Both the position numbers and the translations under genes were made by a program. The notes under the pieces are model-generated. The model ran no database searches. It was not told the DNA's origin and was given only the letters and a program-made list of their open reading frames with translations. From a virus (lineage: Duplodnaviria > Caudoviricetes), in the IMG/VR virus record IMGVR_UViG_3300032255_000004, positions 1-43,090 of that record: 43,090 nt of DNA; one strand, written 5' to 3'. This document shows positions 899-38,336 of the stretch, in pieces (the stretch's first letter is position 1; every line of letters starts with the position of its first letter).

Positions 899-918
899 AA
901 GCCCTCAATCAAGAGGGC
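896..918 (-). terminator. Rho-independent terminator
   Basis: Minus strand GCCCTC-ttgatt-GAGGGC-TTTTT, 20 nt after the stop of the 938-1636 gene. Confidence 0.85.
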
Positions 919-937
919 CGTTGTTCAGGTGGTAAGG

Positions 938-1636
938 TTAAGCTTTAGCTTTAGCCTTAGGTGTAGCTTTAGCCTTAGGTGTAGCCTTAGCCTTAGGTGT
1001 AGCCTTAGCCTTAGGTGTAGCCTTAGCCTTAGCCTTAGGTGTAGGTTTAGCCGCTACTACTACAGGTTTAGCTTCACTTTGATCACCACTGTATTTTTTA
1101 AGTAACGCCTCAAGTTCAGATTTAAAGGTGTCGTTAACTTCCTTATTCGCTTGCTTTAACTTATCGCTATCCTCTGCGCTGGTATAACGTTTGATGTTAC
1201 CTAGGCAAGCTTTGATCAGATCGATCTCAGGTGTTGCGGTGCCAATCTTATCATGTAAGTACCAAGGTTTTTGAAGTACCTTCTCATTAACCTTGAGCTT
1301 GGTACTATTACTGAACTTCACGAATTTTAGTTCACCTTTGATTTTACGGAAGGCGAAACCTTGCACCAAAGCTAAGATATAGTTACGCAGTGTTTGCGAT
1401 CTCATACCTTGTCCGTATGTTTGTCCAGCCTGATCCATTAGGAAGTTGAATACCTCTGGATTGTTTGAACCGTTCACCTTGAAGTGATCCAATCCGTACA
1501 CTACAACGTTTTGGATGTTATCTTGTATACTACCGTTGGCCGTAAACGCAGCACATGCTACTTGTTTCCAGTTTTCTGCGTTAACTTCTACGTTGCCAGT
1601 TGATACCGCTTGCAATAACTTTTTTGTTAGTTTCAT
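938..1636 (-). CDS. Early protein with histone-H1-like Lys/Ala/Pro C-terminal tail
   Basis: AGGTG RBS before ATG at 1636; C-terminus PKAKAKATPKAKATPKAKATPKAKATPKAKAKA; followed by a terminator. Confidence 0.8.
   Translation of the reverse strand: MKLTKKLLQAVSTGNVEVNAENWKQVACAAFTANGSIQDNIQNVVVYGLDHFKVNGSNNPEVFNFLMDQAGQTYGQGMRSQTLRNYILALVQGFAFRKIKGELKFVKFSNSTKLKVNEKVLQKPWYLHDKIGTATPEIDLIKACLGNIKRYTSAEDSDKLKQANKEVNDTFKSELEALLKKYSGDQSEAKPVVVAAKPTPKAKAKATPKAKATPKAKATPKAKATPKAKAKA
941..1045 (-). repeat. 18-bp tandem repeat encoding (TPKAKA)n
   Basis: Repeated ttagccttaggtgtagcc-type units on the + strand. Confidence 0.9.
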
Positions 1637-1697
1637 TTTGTTCACCTATTAAAAGATTAAGAATCCCATAAACAGTACGTTTATTTCGTATGCTAAA

Positions 1698-2236
1698 AAG
1701 CATATTGAAGCGCACCACAAACATAGTGATACGCTTAGTATATGATTTCTAACGCTTGCCCATTAACCTGTCCTTATGGTCTAGGCCCACGATGGAAGTA
1801 TATCCCGCTTCCATTACGGTCGAATTGTTTTTGACTAACTACAGTCGCAGTAACAATTTAACTGCTATCGGTAGTGTTTATCCACTCAAGTTTATTCGTT
1901 ATTCCAACCCACCGAACACCTAACAACTATCGTTTTATACGTCACTCCTGAACTTGCTAGATTCATTAGGACTTGCTATCGCTAAACATGCTCAAAGAGT
2001 GACCTGATCACATGCCTGATAACTTGGTGTTATGTAAGCTTACTAGAACTTTCAACTGGTACAATGTGCTGTATTGTACCACTACCTAGGCCCGCCAGTT
2101 TTTTTCAAGGGGCGGCACCTATTAACTTGCCGATTTAACGGCTATCTATTTCTACCTATGAAACTTGCCTTGTGCTAAGCGACACGACACTGAATAAAAG
2201 ACATACATTGTACGGCCCATAGTTAGTGCTTCAGAC
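1698..2236 (-). ncRNA. Candidate structured non-coding RNA or long structured 5' leader
   Basis: No ORF of 60 aa or more; many stems (1708-18/1726-36 pairs fully only on the minus strand using G.U; 1792-98/1808-14; 1941-47/1997-2003; 2057-65/2073-81); TAGCAT -10-like hexamer at 2243-2248. Confidence 0.5.
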
Positions 2237-2244
2237 TTTAAATG

Positions 2245-2439
2245 CTACCCTGTACAAAAGTACCAAGCGCATATTAAGACACTAGCTAGTGAAGAAATGG
2301 AAAGTAACTGAATTGTTAAAGAACGTGCCCCGATGGACGCTAGATATATAGCATATCCCGTGCCAACAATTATTTTATTCAATAGAATCAATAGTTTAGC
2401 TGTAATAACCTTACTAATAGTATGGATGATAGCATTCAA
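2245..2439 (-). CDS. Small hypothetical membrane protein (64 aa)
   Basis: TTG start with AAGGT upstream; two hydrophobic segments. Confidence 0.4.
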   Translation of the reverse strand: MNAIIHTISKVITAKLLILLNKIIVGTGYAIYLASIGARSLTIQLLSISSLASVLICAWYFCTG

Positions 2440-2452
2440 TAATTACCTTAGT

Positions 2453-2565
2453 TGTAAAGAAACCCGACAGTGCTAAGTGTATGATTCTATTAACAATGGT
2501 AATAATACTTCCCTTAATACATAGGTTTTATAACACCTTGAACTGTAAAGAAACCCGACAGTGCT
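2453..2565. repeat. Two exact 22-bp direct repeats TGTAAAGAAACCCGACAGTGCT
   Basis: Copies at 2453-2474 and 2544-2565. Confidence 0.9.
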
Positions 2566-2612
2566 TTGAGGGTAGCATTGGCATTAATATATAAGGAAAC
2601 GCGTACACGTGT

Positions 2613-2629
2613 AGCAAGGTCTATGCCAA
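2613..2629 (-). promoter_or_regulatory. sigma54 (-24/-12) consensus site, leftward
   Basis: Minus strand TTGGCATAGACCTTGCT = GG-N10-GC, matching YTGGCACGNNNNTTGCW. Confidence 0.65.
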
Positions 2630-2785
2630 CCTGTAAAATAAGTAATCACACTGTACATACGTACATTCCCATAAAAGGCTCTGTACGTCACTCAGAGCTA
2701 TTAACTATTTTCTGGTGTACTTTCCTGAATAAAAACTGATCGTACAATGTAGGTACCTTACAGGCTGAATTCGCTGTTTTCAGAG

Positions 2786-2824
2786 AGTGAATAATTATTC
2801 AGTATCTGTGCATAAGTATTCAAT
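2786..2824. promoter_or_regulatory. Tandem ARG boxes (ArgR operator)
   Basis: agTGAATAATTATTCAgt (2786-2803) and tgTGCATAAGTATTCAat (2807-2824): two 18-bp boxes separated by 3 bp, the canonical gammaproteobacterial ArgR operator geometry. Confidence 0.7.
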
Positions 2825-2834
2825 AGCTGTAATG

Positions 2835-2894
2835 TTGGCATGAGTATTGCTAGGTACTAAGTGAATACCTATTGGCATGAGTATTGCTAGGTAC
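2835..2894 (+). promoter_or_regulatory. Two exact 23-bp direct repeats, each containing a rightward sigma54 consensus site
   Basis: TTGGCATGAGTATTGCTAGGTAC at 2835-2857 and 2872-2894; GG-N10-GC spacing is exact. Confidence 0.7.
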
Positions 2895-3337
2895 AATCAC
2901 TGTATAGATATACATATAATCAATAGGTATCAGGTGCTATACCTAAGTGGCTCGCTTGCGAGCGTCCCCATATACAAAACAACAACTTACAGCACATAGC
3001 ACCCGTCAGGATGCAAGGTCACTCAGGAATCCATTCCATTCGTTCTTCACTCAGTTCACAGGCACCCCACCCCTCGGGGGTCTTGTTCTGTGGTTGTAGA
3101 GTGCATAGCCCCCCAGAAATTTCTACAAAAAATATCAAACCAGAGATTCTCTCCGAGGTGTGAGTACCCCGCTCTAGGGGTGCGACCATCCTTGGCGTGC
3201 TCTTCATCTCTTCGTCCCAACGGGACGTTCTCCCTTGAACGCTCTAAAGGACTTATTTAACTATTTTTAACTATTTAACACTGGAATTGAACTTTCTTCA
3301 ACTGAAAGTTGTCTAATCTATATGACCATATAATTAT

Positions 3338-3401
3338 TCAGGTATTTAGTACTAATTAAATAATTAAATAGCTAATTAAATAAGTACTAGTACATACCTG
3401 A
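3338..3401. repeat. AT-rich inverted repeat enclosing three TAATTAAA units
   Basis: TCAGGTAT..TAGTACT / AGTACTA..ATACCTGA arms around ctaattaaataattaaatagctaattaaata. Confidence 0.7.
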
Positions 3402-3451
3402 TCTTCTCTCGAAGAGAGGCTTTACTACAGAGACCTTACTAAGGGGAACGC

Positions 3452-3703
3452 TTGAACCATATCTTGAGTCCTTTCATAGGTAAGTTAGTTCAACTAGGAA
3501 TCCCCGGACAGTACACCTGTTATGGATACCTCAGAGAAGTTCAGGAAGACCAGAGCTACCAGTACGGAGATGCCCCTGCTGATACCCTGATTGTACTAGA
3601 AGTACATGACCCTGAGTTAGTCACATCAAACAACCCAGACGAACCTGAGCATTGGACAGTACATTGCTTCAGTTCAGATATCTCACTAATTCCCCTTCAC
3701 TAA
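3452..3703 (+). CDS. Hypothetical protein, first gene of the structural arm
   Basis: 83-aa ORF, TTG start with AAGGGG RBS, genome-typical codon usage. Confidence 0.65.
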   Translation: MNHILSPFIGKLVQLGIPGQYTCYGYLREVQEDQSYQYGDAPADTLIVLEVHDPELVTSNNPDEPEHWTVHCFSSDISLIPLH

Positions 3704-3712
3704 GAGTACATA

Positions 3713-6007
3713 ATGGCTAAGTACACACCATCTGGTAACGTAAGAACTAAAGCTGACTTCAATGCTGAATTCCAAAAGATCAAGGTAGCTATTGATTCCC
3801 AGTTAGATCGGGAGTCCAGTAGTTCTAATCAGATGGAAACTCCACTGGATATGAACAGTCAGCGAATTTTGAATCTACCTGTACCTGTAAATCCAACAGA
3901 TGTTGTACGGGTTAAAGATGTCAGCGATCTTGTGTTCCAGACCCAGTTATCTTATGTCCAAGAGGATGTTCCTACTGAGGTAAGTTTAGAAGGCTCACGT
4001 TGGTACAAACCCTCTTTAGCTACTACATTCGTGTACTACACAGATCAGTCAGGCGATAAGTACTGGGTAGAAGAGCCTGTTGCAGTATGTGACCCTCTTG
4101 AACAAGCCTCTGAGTTAACTACAGATTCATTAATTCTGAGTACAGAAGTGTACGGGACAGGGACCTCTTTAACTACAACAGGGTACAGTGCTGTAGGTGA
4201 TGGTGGCGGTGCTCAATGGGTATCTACAGCAGTAACGGGACAGACCCCTAGTCAAACACCAGCGCAGCTAGGTGATGCACTACTTAACGATGCTAATGGC
4301 GTTCAATGGTCGCTAGTTTCAGGAGGGTCAGTTAATGTAGATACGTTGGGTGCTGTTGGTGACGGGATTGCTGACGATACTGCTGTATTCACTGCCGCAG
4401 CGAAAGGATCTATTTCAGCTAAAACGCTTACACAAGGGCGTCTTGTCAGATCCGATAGCGCATCTGTGTATGTCCCTGCTGGCAATTACAACATCACAAG
4501 TGTAGTAGATACAGACGGAGTACAAATACGTTGGATCATGGCTAACGGTGCTGTAATCCCTAATCTGTCAGTTAGTGACGAGCCTCTGGATTCGGACGCT
4601 ACATACGATCAAAACCCTGCTTATCTGTTTGGATCTATCTCTTACGATGATAAAAGGGTGTTTCTGCGTCCTTGCGGTAGTCGTGATTTTAATGCTGGAT
4701 TCACTGCTCAAGTATCAGGCAACCCTCAACGGGGAGCAGAGATAACGGGTTTCAGTGATTACACATCTGTTGCCAACTATGCAGATCGAGACGCTGTTGG
4801 TATCTACAGCGACGCTTACGCTGACCCTAATGAACAGATACTTATTGATCCTGTTACGTCATACACTGATACTAGGGTTAATCTTCCTGCGCCTTTAACG
4901 TCTAACCAAGTTGCTAGACTGCGCGTAGGTATGATGTTGGATACACGCCATACAGGCGCTAAGTTCACGGGTACAGTCACTGACTGGGACGATTCAGGGA
5001 ACTGGATTGATGTCGAGGGCTGGTACGCAATGGGTGACACGTCTGACGGTCAAATACCGGGCGGTAATACAGGTATCCTGATCAACCCAGTAACTAAAGT
5101 GTGGGGAATGAACACACAGATAAAAATACCTACTACGTCTTATGCTCACGCTGGATCAGGTATGGAGATCGGCATCAGCGACTGGAAAGCTGAGTCGGAG
5201 CAGTTCGATACTGGCAGAGATATAGCGGTAGATAACAGTCCCCACTATGTTTGGGGCATGCACATTACAAACTTCACAAGTAATAAAATGCAAGCACATT
5301 TAGTGTTAGATGGTCCGAGCTGGTACGCTATCCAGACTAATGCCAACGTTAGTAATGGCTTCAGGTATAGAGGTGGAGGTTCAGCTTTAATTACTCAAAA
5401 TGACTCCCTGACTACTCGTGGCCGTGTTTTAAATAGTGGCCGATACTTCCTTGAAGAGCAGACGGCTACCGTAACAGCTACCCCTGACGAAAACCCAGCG
5501 AACTCATTTTACTGGGACACTGCACTTAAATTCAACACCGCAAGTGGTCCTACAATGGAGTTAGGTAGGCAGTACGACGCATCAACGCCTGTGATTAATT
5601 TCCACCAGAGCGGTGGCAATATTAATTATGATACACGTATTCGAACTACTAACGGCGATGGGGCTACTGACGGTAATGGTTTCCTCTGGCTAGAAGCAGA
5701 TGGTACGTCAGGACGTGTGTATCTAGACGCTGACGATGTTATTGTTAATAACGCTACTCGACTTAGACCTGCGGATAACAACGCAACAAAGAACGGCGAT
5801 ACAAGTAACAGGTGGTCTGAAACTTACTCTGTTGAATTTCGGCCCGGCACTGTTGGTGATGTGGTGTGGACTAGTGGTACAGGCAGCCCCGAAGGTGTAG
5901 TAACAGCACCAGTAGGGTCTATGTTTACTAGAAGAGATGGTGGGGCCTCTACCACTCTATACGTCAAAGAATCTGGATCAGGCAATACGGGATGGGTCGC
6001 TAAATAA
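3713..6007 (+). CDS. Tail fibre / tailspike 1 (virion-anchored)
   Basis: N-terminal anchor with LDMNSQRILNLPVPVNPTDVV motif; LGAVGDGIADDTAVF tailspike entry motif; C-terminal SGTGSPEGVVTAPVGS..TGW motif typical of phage fibres. Confidence 0.85.
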   Translation: MAKYTPSGNVRTKADFNAEFQKIKVAIDSQLDRESSSSNQMETPLDMNSQRILNLPVPVNPTDVVRVKDVSDLVFQTQLSYVQEDVPTEVSLEGSRWYKPSLATTFVYYTDQSGDKYWVEEPVAVCDPLEQASELTTDSLILSTEVYGTGTSLTTTGYSAVGDGGGAQWVSTAVTGQTPSQTPAQLGDALLNDANGVQWSLVSGGSVNVDTLGAVGDGIADDTAVFTAAAKGSISAKTLTQGRLVRSDSASVYVPAGNYNITSVVDTDGVQIRWIMANGAVIPNLSVSDEPLDSDATYDQNPAYLFGSISYDDKRVFLRPCGSRDFNAGFTAQVSGNPQRGAEITGFSDYTSVANYADRDAVGIYSDAYADPNEQILIDPVTSYTDTRVNLPAPLTSNQVARLRVGMMLDTRHTGAKFTGTVTDWDDSGNWIDVEGWYAMGDTSDGQIPGGNTGILINPVTKVWGMNTQIKIPTTSYAHAGSGMEIGISDWKAESEQFDTGRDIAVDNSPHYVWGMHITNFTSNKMQAHLVLDGPSWYAIQTNANVSNGFRYRGGGSALITQNDSLTTRGRVLNSGRYFLEEQTATVTATPDENPANSFYWDTALKFNTASGPTMELGRQYDASTPVINFHQSGGNINYDTRIRTTNGDGATDGNGFLWLEADGTSGRVYLDADDVIVNNATRLRPADNNATKNGDTSNRWSETYSVEFRPGTVGDVVWTSGTGSPEGVVTAPVGSMFTRRDGGASTTLYVKESGSGNTGWVAK

Positions 6008-15165: not shown

Positions 15166-15539
15166 TGATGAATAGTTTACGATCAGTAGCTGAGTCTGTA
15201 CAGCGCCCTAACAGTGAAATCAACTTAGAGTTCACAGGTTACGGTTACAGATGGGTAGGGAAGTCAGTCCCTAGAAGTATGCAAGGTTTGTGGTTAAGTC
15301 CAGATGCGGCTGTCCAAGCTTCTAAGTCTTTTGAAAAAGAACTCACTAAGAAAGCAGAGCACAAGGCTAAGCATGTGAACGCAGAGATCACGGATCTAGA
15401 GCAACTCGATATTCTTACGCGTAAGCATGAGTTACTAGACTTTGCGGAGAGCCGTAACCTTGAAGTACCCTCAGATATCAAACAGCCTGCAAAGATTAAA
15501 AAACTTCTTAAAGAAACTCTGGAGGAAGCTAATGCCTAG
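15165..15539 (+). CDS. Hypothetical protein
   Basis: 124-aa coupled ORF in the tail module. Confidence 0.7.
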   Translation: MMNSLRSVAESVQRPNSEINLEFTGYGYRWVGKSVPRSMQGLWLSPDAAVQASKSFEKELTKKAEHKAKHVNAEITDLEQLDILTRKHELLDFAESRNLEVPSDIKQPAKIKKLLKETLEEANA

Positions 15540-16428
15540 AGCAGTCGGCTCCAAGGATTACACTAATCTTGCAAAGGGTTTGATCACAGAAAGCTCTGAG
15601 TTAGAGTTTCCTGACGGAGCGACTTCTGATGAGCTTAATTTCTTATTAGACTCGAAAGGTATTAAACGTGTTAAGCGTAAAGGTTTTGAGTTCATAGATT
15701 CTATCCCGTACGTTATGACTACTTTAGATTCATCTTCAGAAGTGAAGTACGGTGGTACAAAGTACTGGCAGAATGCTGATGTGTTCGTTAGTACGTTCTA
15801 TGACACTACGAACTTACATATTCAGATCCTATCGGGGGATGACTTCTCTGTACTAGGCAGCACAAGCTTCGGTACGGATGTCCCTACTGAAGATTTAGTT
15901 TCCATGGCCCCTTTAGCGGATTACTTCGTTATTATGTCAGGGAAAGGGAACACCCATACAGTCCTTGAGTACAAACAAGAAGTACCGAGTATTGATGTTA
16001 ATCTGTTCAATTTGTACCGTAGGGACTTCACCCTTGTGGACGATGGACTCGCATTGTCAGAGAGGCCGAGCAGCTTGAATAACGACCATGAGTACAACTT
16101 AGTTAATGCTGATTGGTACTCTACTCGTAAAGACTCGGGGGCTAACTTTGTAGATCCTGTAGCTCAGTTCTACACAGATTCAACTAATACAGAGTACCCT
16201 AGTAATTCTGATATAGCTAAACTTGGTTTGAAGGTAGACGGTTCAGGTAATGAAGTGTTCAGTAGAGATACTTTACTAGAGTCTCCTGTAGGTAACACTG
16301 AAGCAGCCCGTGGACATTTTGTGTACGCCCTGAATGATTTGAACCGTGAAGCACGTCGCCTGAATCCTTTGAATGACGGTGCTCCGAGTACAACAATCTC
16401 TTCTACTCTAACCACTATTAACCTTTAA
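15532..16428 (+). CDS. Tail tubular protein B / nozzle, N-terminal part
   Basis: Start corrected to ATG 15532 (GGAGG RBS); KGLITES..FP..RVKRKGF resembles the N-terminus of gp12/P22 gp10-type nozzle proteins. Confidence 0.6.
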   Translation: MPRAVGSKDYTNLAKGLITESSELEFPDGATSDELNFLLDSKGIKRVKRKGFEFIDSIPYVMTTLDSSSEVKYGGTKYWQNADVFVSTFYDTTNLHIQILSGDDFSVLGSTSFGTDVPTEDLVSMAPLADYFVIMSGKGNTHTVLEYKQEVPSIDVNLFNLYRRDFTLVDDGLALSERPSSLNNDHEYNLVNADWYSTRKDSGANFVDPVAQFYTDSTNTEYPSNSDIAKLGLKVDGSGNEVFSRDTLLESPVGNTEAARGHFVYALNDLNREARRLNPLNDGAPSTTISSTLTTINL

Positions 16429-16436
16429 GAGAACCG

Positions 16437-17723
16437 ATGGCAACTCAAAGTATTTCTCCAGCACCACAGAAACCTAGCGTAGTTGAGTCAGGGTTCGGTA
16501 GGTTTTTCTACGCAGCGAACTCTGTTATTTACTTCAGCCCGTTAGTACGAAGTATTGCAGATATAGGTCGTTGCTACCAAGTGAATGATCCTACCAGTGA
16601 CCAGATCAGTGACGTGTTAGCTACTGATGGTGGTGAGCTGAACATTGATGAAGCTGGGGGCATCGTTAAATTACTGAAGTTCCGTTATGGTATCTTGATC
16701 TTTGCAGAGAACGGTGTCTGGTACTTATCAGGCCCTGATGGTATTTTTTCAGCTACTTCATTCAGCTTATCTAAGGTTAGCTCTATGGGTTGTCTGTATC
16801 CCGATTCAGTTGTACTTGCAGAAAGTGCAGTGTTCTATTTCTCAGAAGAAGGTATTATTCGTTTATCTGAGAACGAGTTCAATGTAATCACTGACGAGGA
16901 CATCACCTTAACCACAATACGTTCACATTACATCGAGTTCTTTAATGGTGTGGATGTAGTTGGAAACTTCAAACCTACAACTAAAGAGGTCTGGTGGTGG
17001 CAGAAAGAGCTACAACCTGATCAACCCCCTATGCGTGTGGGCGGTACAAGCACCCCTCGGGGATTAGTCCTAGACTTAAAGGTTGGAGGTTTTTATCCTC
17101 AACAGGTAGATTCTTTCAAGAAGATATCGAAGGCTGTAACTAAGAATTCTGAGTACTACCACGTAGATTGGTCAACCTCACAGACTGATGTATCTGAGGT
17201 AACAATTACACCTAACCTCAAAGATAACACCGATTCTAGCTTCTCTGATGGAACTAACCCTCCGTACATTGCTTACCTAGAGACAGGCCCTGAGACATTA
17301 GGGAAATACGCTAACGGTAAATCGGTAATGGAAGCAAGCTTCTTCTTCAACCGTACAGAGACTCAGATCACTGATTACAATTGGGATACTGGTGTGTACA
17401 CTTATGATAAGCCTAGTGGCTGTTTCTTACAACTACGCTGGGACTTCGATGACTCGAACAGCGGTAATCGTTGGGTAGGTAGTACTCCGTTATGGCCAAT
17501 AGGTCCCAACTTTCGTGAGCTTCAGATATATAACCCGAACGTACGTGGCTTCATTCCTGATGCAATCCCCTCAGATTTCAGTGACGGGTACAGTACAGTA
17601 AGTCAACGTCAGAGACTCCGTGGGAGCGGGAGAGCCGTTAAGTTCCGGTTCGAGTCTGAAGATAATAAAGATATGCAAATGCTAGGCTATGCCGTAGCTT
17701 ATAGTGTTAAGGGGCGTATGTGA
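16437..17723 (+). CDS. Tail tubular protein B / nozzle, C-terminal part
   Basis: Beta-propeller-like motifs (GILIFAENGVWYLSG, VFYFSEEGI) and C-terminal LRGSGRAVKFRFES. Confidence 0.65.
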   Translation: MATQSISPAPQKPSVVESGFGRFFYAANSVIYFSPLVRSIADIGRCYQVNDPTSDQISDVLATDGGELNIDEAGGIVKLLKFRYGILIFAENGVWYLSGPDGIFSATSFSLSKVSSMGCLYPDSVVLAESAVFYFSEEGIIRLSENEFNVITDEDITLTTIRSHYIEFFNGVDVVGNFKPTTKEVWWWQKELQPDQPPMRVGGTSTPRGLVLDLKVGGFYPQQVDSFKKISKAVTKNSEYYHVDWSTSQTDVSEVTITPNLKDNTDSSFSDGTNPPYIAYLETGPETLGKYANGKSVMEASFFFNRTETQITDYNWDTGVYTYDKPSGCFLQLRWDFDDSNSGNRWVGSTPLWPIGPNFRELQIYNPNVRGFIPDAIPSDFSDGYSTVSQRQRLRGSGRAVKFRFESEDNKDMQMLGYAVAYSVKGRM

Positions 17724-35812: not shown

Positions 35813-38336
35813 CCGGATTAATCTCAGGCGCATCGTTGTTCTCCTGTTCAGGTTCAAGTTCTTGTTCAGTCTTGTTCTCAGGATCAGCACTGTTGTCTGA
35901 CTTCTGAAGCTCAGTTAATCTGCCTGTGTTAGCGTTGTAAATCAGAGGTACTTTCCCAGACTCTCCGAAGTTACGGTCCTCAAGCATAGATAGAAATCTA
36001 AGATTTTTCTGTTCCGGTTGTTCAGGATCTTTGTTCCCTTCTAACCCGATCATGTAATAACAGCTTCGCATCATAGCTCTGGAGCCAGCGAACTGTACAC
36101 TTTGGACATGGCCACCACGTTCATGGGGCTTACCTGATTCGGGTTTATTCAAGTGGCAGAACACGTAGTACGTGAAATTCAATTCCTTACTCATGCTTGC
36201 CAGTTCTGAAGCGATCTCGACTAACCTTTCGTTAGCCTCACCTGAACCCATACCCACTGTTAAGCAAGTAATAGGGTCAATTACTACATCACGGACCCCT
36301 TCGGTGATACAGACGTTCCGGATCTCTGCCTTGAGGTCTTTCCACTCTGTCTTACCGTACTGTCCGTACATAATAGCCTTGCCACGGATGATGTTCTTCC
36401 CTCTAGCGAAGGCTCCTGCATCGAACTCAATGCGAGGATCATGGAACACTCGGTCTACTGCAACACCTGCTAACTTCTGTGCTGTTATTGCATTAGATTC
36501 CTCAGGTTTACATAAGAACACATCCAGCCCATGCTCTTTGATAAGGTGAGCAGCGAGTTCATTCACAACACAACTCTTACCCATTTTTACCTTTGTATTC
36601 AATAACTTACGCAACTAAGTTACCCGTTCTCTGATGAACTGCTGCATGTTTCCGTGCAGAATAGACTATATCATCAATCGTTAGATTGCTCACCGCTTCC
36701 ACCACCATAAGCTTGTGGTGTACTCTCTTTCGAGATAGTCGTTGAACTTTACCAAAAATAATCCCGAGAGATTTGCTTCCACGTCTTCCTTCGCCTTATA
36801 TCATCGAATTGATATTTAGTGCAAGAAGGTACTAAGTCTAAAATTTCCCCTCGTTTCATACCGAACGATATGAAAGAACAGATATCTTGAACCTCGTAAT
36901 CCGTTAACTTAGAATTAACGTGTTTCTCTCCCGACGCTCTAAGCTCTAAACTTAGAGCGTGTTGTTTATTTTCTGAACTTGTACACCATCCTAAATTATC
37001 AATACGATTGTCAAGCTTGTCACCGTTTATGTGATTTACTTCCATACCTTCTTGATAACCTATAAAGGTTTCAGCTACTAATCTATGAATAAAAAACCTA
37101 AAAGGCTTACCATCTTTAGATAAAGTAACTCTCTTATAACCACAATTATTTATATCAGGTTTTAATATTTTCCCAGTAACTAAGTTAAACACTAAACCTT
37201 CTTTAGTAATCGCGTACCTTTCAAAGTTTCTAATACTTCTTGATTCATTCATTCTAAACACCTCCTTAGTATTAGACAACTGGACTGGGTAAAAGTTCAC
37301 TGGTCTTAGCTGCTGATTGCCCTCGTCTTTACGTTAGGGGTTCCCAGCAATTCAATGAGTTTATAGCGGGCATGTATCCACCCGCTCCGAAGTAATAACC
37401 TTCACCCCTACGGATACCCCTAGTGAGGGTCGTAAGTCCCGGCCACGGCCACGACAGGCCGTCCTCTGGACGTTTCATAGCATCATCCCATACATCTGAG
37501 CTACGGACTAGCTTATCGCTCAATGGACGTTTAGCTTCCCACACGCAGGAGTTGAACAGTTCTTGCTCCCGACCTTCCATGAGCATATCGTGGGCATCTT
37601 TCAGACTGAAATTAGCTACAACAGCCTTCGGATACATCTTACAAAACGCTTGTGCCGCAGCCTTACCTGCTTCATCTTGGTCCCCGCAGTACACTACTTG
37701 CTTCCAACGGTCGAAGTCCTTGGTGTATTTAGACAACTTATCTACCGTTTTAGTTCCGTGGTGAAGACTAATAACTGCTGGCGGGCGGTCAGATTTGCCC
37801 CTTTCAGAGAGAACTTGGAACAAAGCTAGTGCGTCTTTCTGGCCCTCTGTTATGAACAGCTTGAACCCTCCAGCTTGCACTGCTTGATCCCATCCGAACG
37901 GGTCGCACTCCTGTACATCCCCTATAAAGAAGAACCGTTTATCAGGGACAGTCCGCGCTTGGAATGCTTGAACTTTACCTTGAGCTGTGTACGGGTAGTA
38001 ATGCGACTGAACTACGGAGGCTGTCTCTTGGTCGTAACCTAGACGGACACCGAAATGCTGCATCACATGCTTCTTGATTTTTAAGTCAGGGAGTCCCTCT
38101 ATCGGGAGCTTCTTGATGAACTCGACCTCTTTCTGGATCTGTTCAGGTGATTTACGTTGTGGTTCAGGTGGCGTGTACGATGCGTCTTTGTCACTGTACG
38201 GGTCCTTTACATGAGTATGGCAGGAGAAGCAATAGCCTGTGTACCTACCGTCATCTTCCCTGAAGACCTGTAACCCTCTCGTTGTGCCGCATGAATGCGG
38301 TAATCTTTCTACGTACTTACCTCGTTGCTTTTCCAT
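35790..38336 (-). CDS. Primase-helicase (T7 gp4-like), spliced: exon 1 38336-37380 plus exon 2 36590-35790, 585 aa
   Basis: Zn finger (HSC...CFSC), TOPRIM (ITEGQKDA, GDQDEAG), DnaB-like helicase motifs (VIDPI, CHLNK, FAGSR). Walker A GAG|VKMGKS is restored only by joining the two ORFs. Confidence 0.93.
36591..37379 (-). mobile_element. Group I self-splicing intron (789 nt, IA-like)
   Basis: Exon ends in U and intron ends in G; P1 AGCGGGU/GCCCGCU with U.G at the splice site; P AAUUGCUGGGAA (37341-52), Q AAUCAGCAG (37310-18), R GUUCAACGACUA (36736-47), S GAUGAUAUAGUCU (36663-75); P3 CUCAUUG/CGGUGAG; P7 GACUA/UAGUC. Confidence 0.93.
36749..37252 (-). CDS. Intron-encoded HNH homing endonuclease (NUMOD4/HNH, I-HmuI-like)
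   Basis: AAGGAGG RBS before ATG 37252; IHRLVAETF..VNHINGDKLDNRIDNLGWCTSSEN; AT-rich relative to flanks; lies between Q and R (P6 region). Confidence 0.9.
   Translation of the reverse strand: MNESRSIRNFERYAITKEGLVFNLVTGKILKPDINNCGYKRVTLSKDGKPFRFFIHRLVAETFIGYQEGMEVNHINGDKLDNRIDNLGWCTSSENKQHALSLELRASGEKHVNSKLTDYEVQDICSFISFGMKRGEILDLVPSCTKYQFDDIRRRKTWKQISRDYFW

Follow-up and report, generated by a model that had tools for sequence, protein, structure and literature searches.

The window analyzed here, one 43,090-nt contig of a podophage whose genes form two opposed arms, contains a stretch (1750-2236) that was originally predicted, from its letters, to be a structured RNA acting on its own as a protein sponge or decoy. 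We consider it probable that this stretch forms the interior of the first early transcript's 5' leader, a leader of the T7 type but stretched, whose main role would be exerted in cis and whose insert would be a fast-evolving, lineage-specific folded RNA. Read on the minus strand, the unit comprises promoter-like sites, a boxA (2324), approximately 560 nt of hairpins, a 24-bp stem, gene 1, and a terminator (Table 1). Both boxA and the 1753-1692 stem of RNase III type were overlooked in the original prediction; they place the stretch in the middle of this larger unit, whose best fold (1640-1779) lies beyond the 3' bound that had been proposed. What is most likely retained from that prediction is an early, minus-strand, non-coding, folded RNA; the stand-alone sponge is not.

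Table 1. Features of the left-end region of the window, in the order of minus-strand transcription
Feature	Position	Strand	Basis or remark
Inferred physical left end of the genome (~3105), start of terminal repeat	3101-3109	-	9-mer also in HP1
Two σ54-type -24/-12 sites inside a 23-nt direct repeat	2836-2888	+	face away from early genes
σ54-type -24/-12 site followed by alternating purine-pyrimidine tract	2613-2628	-	motif match
Candidate host promoters, with 22-nt direct repeat (2453-2474, 2544-2565)	2426-2565	-	consensus match
Promoter-like site nearest boxA: σ54-type variant overlapping a weak extended -10	2350-2365	-	
boxA, exact GYTCTTTAANA, NusB-NusE loading signal	2314-2324	-	consensus of PMC5725501 (accessible text)
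11-nt near-palindrome behind boxA, common to L045	2280-2290	-	local alignment z 5.0
12-bp hairpin	2242-2272	-	mean pair probability 0.93; z -2.5
Flagged insert, predicted hairpin chain	1754-2236	-	region z about -1.8
CAAGUU-N1-4-AGG, four copies (2167-2155, 2129-2118, 2026-2015, 1956-1947)	1947-2167	-	corrected P 0.011
24-bp imperfect stem with 3x2 internal loop, predicted RNase III-type processing site	1692-1753	-	z -4.44
Shine-Dalgarno sequence of gene 1	1642-1647	-	
Gene 1, uncharacterized early protein (phrog_14737) with K/A/P-rich repeat tail	938-1636	-	
Intrinsic terminator closing the leader-plus-gene-1 unit	900-919	-	

The phage encodes a T7-like replication set and an amidoligase cluster, and among cultured and deposited phages the best matches of its terminase (46-52%) belong to the Zobellviridae; it is most likely a Zobellviridae-like podophage of marine type. 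The stretch had been described as an isolated ORF-free island. It is in fact part of a gene-free gap of 2,076 nt (1637-3712), the sole large one in the genome, and it lies upstream of gene 1 (1636-938, minus strand). RIO-1, HP1, ICP2, and Vibrio phage 1.293.O have a gap in the same position, bounded by the left terminal repeat and gene 1, and the arm layout of the window also agrees with that of RIO-1, HP1, and ICP2; in RIO-1, the gp1 gene is the first one behind this repeat. The start of the left terminal repeat annotated in RIO-1 falls, as read in HP1, within a 9-mer that the minus strand of the window also contains at 3109-3101, and the flagged stretch would therefore lie approximately 0.9-1.4 kb from the inferred left end. 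By analogy with the gene order of RIO-1, some early genes probably reside beyond the contig ends. Near the inferred right end, an AT-rich 29-bp inverted repeat (3338-3401) folds on both strands (z -4.1 and -4.9) and is a possible origin or packaging signal. Elsewhere, an HNH endonuclease gene (36749-37300) splits the primase/helicase, a gene that in RIO-1 has a group I intron, none being detected in the window by Rfam at gathering score, and the tail appendage gene (phrog_8094, 15442-17723) consists of two consecutive ORFs, likewise in RIO-1 and L044.

In Vibrio phages 1.293.O and 275E43-1, the first early genes match gene 1, whose family includes RIO-1 gp1 and ICP2 gp27, linked through the homologue P0009. 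The structural model of its product is confident (pLDDT 82), with a 188-aa folded domain and a tail, and resembles only uncharacterized phage proteins; against solved structures, the best match (Z 6.3) reflects a common helical arrangement, no Pfam match stands out, and Atlas was likewise uninformative. A search of viral and metagenome contigs recovered only L045, the closest relative, its identical or near-identical copies, and the window's own record, and a word-index protein search gave no match. The C-terminus (encoded at 938-1060) is a histone-H1-like PKAKAT repeat tail built of 18-nt units; among 10 aligned gene 1 homologues, only P0003 has a K/A-rich tail, which is shorter.

Host RNA polymerase would initiate at the promoter-like sites between 2628 and approximately 2340. 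A consensus scan of the minus strand from 2340 to 2790 found no canonical σ70 promoter, only extended -10-like and σ54-type sites. The extended -10-like boxes at 2535-2527 and 2434-2426 (minus strand) are consensus matches only. The site beside boxA (2350-2365) is not a clean σ70 match, and its distance to boxA approximates the promoter-to-boxA distance of relatives. All four σ54-type -24/-12 sites of the genome fall within 2350-2888, two per direction, and divergent pairs of such sites are also found in L009, L010, and L020. Of the 20 regions examined, 9 contain the strict σ54-type motif of 2613-2628 in sense orientation. In the window, this motif is followed by 13 nt of alternating purines and pyrimidines, a composite also found in 10 viral contigs and in the Vibrio phages 1.293.O and 275E43-1. 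At 868-882 and 2423-2437 lies a perfect 15-nt inverted pair, whose near-palindromic core reads as an extended -10-like box both ways and recurs in L001, L002, L022, L045, and L054; the copy at 868-882 is possibly a promoter behind the gene 1 terminator.

The boxA at 2324 is the sole exact match on either strand of the 43 kb. We surveyed 20 regions upstream of the first early gene, namely that of the window, those of 18 other phage loci, and that of T7. An exact boxA in sense orientation was found in 11 of these (T7 included; one to three copies each) and in antisense orientation in none, against an expectation of approximately 0.005 per region, although the 20 regions are partly non-independent (the ICP2 pair, L054/L055, L017/L029, RIO-1/HP1, L001/L002) and L005, L006, and L011, whose family is not established, entered the survey via a promoter motif. 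The nine regions that have no exact boxA include those of RIO-1, HP1, and 1.293.O, whose leaders are long and folded. In most boxA contexts inspected, the element sits shortly behind a promoter-like site, and in T7 it lies between promoter A3 and gene 0.3. The distance from boxA to the start codon is approximately 115 nt in L017, L029, and T7 and 590-940 nt in most others. Since there are long leaders without boxA and short leaders with it, the existence of the insert is not explained by boxA. The boxA context of L045 matches T7-like Klebsiella phages over 29 nt (96.6%; 91 records), and a hairpin lies just ahead of the first L045 boxA, a further likeness to rrn leaders. In the T7-like Klebsiella phage L096 (730-775), a GCAA-capped hairpin directly precedes boxA, and its stem core is that of a GNRA hairpin in the leaders of Vibrio Zobellviridae. 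A scan for boxA plus the near-palindrome of Table 1 yielded 7 viral and 6 genome loci; two of these are the L045 phage and, among those inspected, seven are chance-like.

As judged from work on E. coli, the boxA would load NusB-NusE together with NusA, NusG, and SuhB, and the modified polymerase would then cross approximately 690 untranslated nt without Rho termination while the RNA folds on emergence. The Nus complex opposes Rho and chaperones folding (accessible text of PMC5725501 and PMC8632103), and Rho loading sites are pyrimidine-rich and G-poor (accessible text of PMC5725501). The G-rich, C-poor, hairpin-rich strand transcribed here (G 120 and C 86 of the 487 nt of the insert) would offer few of them. 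No terminator-like site was detected between boxA and gene 1 in a search of 2340-938; because no intrinsic terminator closes the insert, the transcript would run into gene 1. RNase III would subsequently cut the 1753-1692 stem, leaving a short 5' end on the gene 1 mRNA and releasing a leader RNA of approximately 640 nt, and transcription would end at 919-900.

The stem that this processing would require is specific to the minus strand (z -4.44 vs -1.12 on the plus strand; pair probability 0.91-0.98), and the strongest minus-strand fold within 1560-3780 is that of 1640-1779 (z -4.6, 100-nt windows). A pre-gene hairpin with z of -2.4 or lower is found in the last 115 nt ahead of the first gene in 15 of 17 regions, T7 included; among 97 control windows of coding sequence, 7% have z below -2. 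In RIO-1, HP1, and KZY1, the predicted loop pattern of this hairpin is that of T7. We take the T7 hairpin, which carries no such annotation in the T7 records examined, to be the RNase III site R0.3, and by analogy with the cut position of that site a cut near 1705 in the window may be guessed. RNase III substrates span approximately two helical turns, internal loops restricting the enzyme to one cut (accessible text of PMC1540722).

The window thus has in common with a T7-type leader its location, a boxA on the transcribed strand, and a two-turn stem with an internal loop. The T7 early region follows the same order: terminal repeat, tandem host promoters (A1-A3 in T7), exact boxA, long asymmetric-loop hairpin, and first gene. 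Whereas 112 nt separate boxA from the start codon in T7, the window has 688 nt there, filled with folded RNA; unlike T7, the window has σ54-type sites flanking the promoters, a terminator after gene 1, and a gene 1 of another family. An rrn operon leader has the order boxB-boxA-boxC and a complex of NusA/B/E/G, SuhB, and S4. Such leaders likewise combine an exact boxA near the promoter, long untranslated folded RNA, and an RNase III-type stem (accessible text of PMC8632103), but the window has no rRNA cargo, identified boxC, or demonstrated leader-trailer helix. The λ pL leader also has boxA, structured untranslated RNA, and a first gene (accessible text of PMC5725501), but no boxB was found behind the boxA of the window, and no likeness of gene 1 to N emerged from Pfam or solved structures.

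The λ likeness bears on one alternative, a translational switch akin to nutL/N in which a boxA-tethered loop, with the 35 nt behind boxA pairing with the gene 1 ribosome-binding site, would silence gene 1 until RNase III cuts. We regard this as improbable. A long-range helix between 2299-2289 and 1644-1634 is predicted (pair probability 0.72), a similar duplex is found in L045 (P 0.02-0.05), and Nus-dependent repression is known for suhB and λ N (accessible text of PMC5725501). However, the duplex of the window fails to reach significance (P 0.08-0.14), pairing of equal strength is found for 5 of 27 other genes, and in the 10 further sets tested no boxA copy attained P 0.1.

The original prediction named five stems in the insert. 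Four are recovered with mean pair probabilities of 0.87-0.97 (1792-1814, 1941-2003, 2057-2081, 2087-2121), that at 1941-2003 extending to 16 bp; the arms of the fifth (1823-1858) are present in the letters but are outcompeted by other pairings in the predicted fold. The hairpins predicted for the insert are 2142-2129, 2121-2087, 2081-2057, 2039-1907 (enclosing 2003-1941), 1865-1833, 1814-1792, and 1790-1754. Relative to shuffles, the fold of 1700-2260 is a modest one: the plus strand gives z -1.20 and the minus strand z -1.75, a value matched by 6 of 100 shuffles. Leader interiors in general fold weakly on average, with z of -2.5 or lower in 2 of 13 and -1.81 for that of the window. In keeping with the original statement that no tRNA, tmRNA, or known riboswitch was recognized, Rfam 15 gave zero hits in the window at the gathering threshold and ARAGORN none. 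The sole E-value hit within 1600-3750, to U6atac (3127-3226, E 0.43), lies outside the stretch and was dismissed as chance. Rfam applied to 11 related loci returned three tRNAs and nothing else.

The insert has no DNA similarity to any of 50,697 phage records by blastn, and none of 11 other leaders could be aligned with it; only boxA and the 45 nt that follow align, and only in L045. Across these leaders, no sequence core common to the family was found, and several relatives have no insert. Of four scoring schemes, two gave a positive global alignment of the window with L045; the reverse-complement control was positive as well, and the alignment was therefore not counted as homology. Three DNA sequencing runs contained no variant letters. 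Because the insert has no alignable homologue, the covariation that the original prediction had proposed to look for was examined only in positional counterparts, where compensatory changes were found. Among the leaders of four Vibrio phages, three chosen hairpins comprise 31 pairs, 4 of which are changed on both sides (1 of 500 shuffles reaching the score), and in the RIO-1/HP1/KZY1 leaders 7 of 33 pairs are so changed (0 of 500 shuffles), each set holding three or four related sequences and the structure being derived from their own consensus. The pre-gene hairpin accounts for 7 of the 11 double changes, and GAAA and GCAA loops replace one another in both groups. Conservation within the RIO-1/HP1/KZY1 leader is highest in a hairpin (L043:855-880, L047, L050), whose loop we take to resemble the anticodon loop of initiator tRNA.

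These folding data also bear on two further alternatives. The first is that the stretch functions as DNA, providing protein-binding sites or cruciforms for DNA entry, for an origin, or for the gene 1 product, and that its folding as RNA is incidental. It lies no more than about 1.4 kb from the inferred left end and adjoins the clustered σ54-type sites and direct repeats, and folding is seen on both strands for two of its stems, which are perfect inverted repeats. The best stems, however, use G-U pairs and are specific to the minus strand (z -4.44 vs -1.12 and -2.33 vs -0.97), and the relatives show G-U-tolerant changes and GNRA loops; we consider a DNA element very improbable. The second, to which we give the least credence of all, is that the stretch encodes short peptides or is the remnant of early genes such as those of L017, L022, and L029. 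ORFs of 20-55 aa do exist in it, and some relatives have small genes soon after the promoter. Against this explanation, Shine-Dalgarno pairing is weaker than -3 kcal/mol in 15 of 17 ORFs, the exceptions being 2008-2082 (-5.3) and 2245-2439 (-3.9) and the median of real genes -4.5 (n=26), and the lack of DNA similarity among the phage records offers such genes no relative.

The repeated words that had suggested a sponge are present on the minus strand as described: GCAAG five times, four of them as GCAAGT, and AGGT six times, together with an 8-mer, CTAGGCCC, duplicated at 1781 and 2086. As a signal they fare less well. The GCAAG count has a P of 0.001 taken alone but of 0.41 as the best of all 5-mers, and the best 6-mer (four copies) has a P of 0.11; the AGGT count (P 0.16) and the 8-mer pair (some duplicated 8-mer being expected, P 0.84) are at chance level. 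The extended motif CAAGTT-N1-4-AGG, in four copies, passes the best-motif correction (P 0.011; 33 of 3,000 shuffles), and four other non-repeat places in the genome equal its count using other words. In 11 other leaders, GCAAGT is in excess in the sense orientation (8 vs 2.4 expected, 3.3-fold, P 0.004), as is GCAAG (18 vs 8.4), neither being in excess in antisense, and AGGT is flat. GCAAG is also enriched in coding DNA (1.2-1.6-fold in five sets) and in upstream non-coding DNA (2.55-fold), GCAAGT reaching 0.5-1.3-fold in coding DNA. In the predicted folds, only one of the five GCAAG copies of the window is mostly unpaired (range 0.22-0.79), and over 23 copies the typical state is GC paired, AA open, and G paired, as would suit a bulge, helix junction, or GNRA loop, unlike the exposed word of CsrB-type RNAs. 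GCAAG(U) is thus a weak but real signal, probably structural, and it may have a protein-binding role.

The insert resembles CsrB/RsmZ and CrcZ in its length of several hundred nt, its many hairpins, and its repeated short word. It differs from them in having no terminator of its own, no GGA enrichment, and no Rfam match, and its motifs are few and mostly paired. The window leader has 7 GGA in 706 nt (other leaders, 3-16), and no GGA enrichment was found in the 11 other leaders (88 vs 95.7 expected). A stand-alone sponge of this kind is not supported by these features. In processed form, the sponge idea belongs to another alternative, namely that the released RNA of ~640 nt is the real product, a stable, Nus-chaperoned decoy or scaffold acting in trans on a host RNA-binding or defense protein, with the CAAGUU-N1-4-AGG repeats possibly the contact. 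We hold this to be unlikely, although not negligible. In its favor are the corrected significance of the extended motif, the presence of CAAGU in both of the longest words (12 and 11 nt) common to the window and L045 leaders, the sense-only excess of GCAAGU in other leaders but not in coding DNA, and the covariation of interior hairpins in relatives. The main task of Nus factors at rRNA, moreover, is RNA folding (accessible text of PMC5725501). Two Vibrio Zobellviridae encode a ProQ/FinO-domain protein in one of their first early genes (L001:2033-2431, L002:4194-4592), and this protein is a possible partner of the leader RNA. Against a trans-acting RNA, the motifs are few and mostly base-paired, the extended motif occurs in none of the 11 other leaders, the insert and most leader interiors fold modestly, and a family-wide sequence core is absent, as is the insert itself in several relatives. 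A scan for paired CAAGUU motifs returned 24 loci, 22 of them inside open frames of at least 124 aa and none with a boxA. A broader version, to which we assign an equally small chance, is that Zobellviridae and related T7-supergroup podophages carry promoter, boxA, cargo, and RNase III stem as an rRNA operon in miniature, whose first product is a lineage-specific, Nus-chaperoned folded RNA of 500-800 nt directed in trans, as a decoy or scaffold, at a host RNA-binding or anti-phage protein, in the window via the CAAGUU-N1-4-AGG repeats. The preferred reading remains a leader that works like that of T7, borrowing the boxA of rrn operons.

In the literature searched, to which subscription papers mostly do not belong, neither boxA nor a folded leader is described for Zobellviridae, and there is nothing that joins boxA with T7, lytic phages, or early promoters, and nothing on noncoding RNA in ICP2 RNA-seq; the noncoding RNA tables of PMC10914365, outside this scope, may include leader RNAs of other podophages. 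With a stretched T7-type leader in this place, the "empty" left end of Zobellviridae genomes gains a testable anatomy in common with T7. The arrangement also suggests how phages without an RNA polymerase or N protein of their own read through long early regions, a strategy that the authors of work on the related phage 7-11 call undefined (accessible text of PMC8948821). Finally, if the released RNA has a target of its own, these phages would produce large immediate-early RNAs of a class so far overlooked, and cultured relatives would allow this to be tested.
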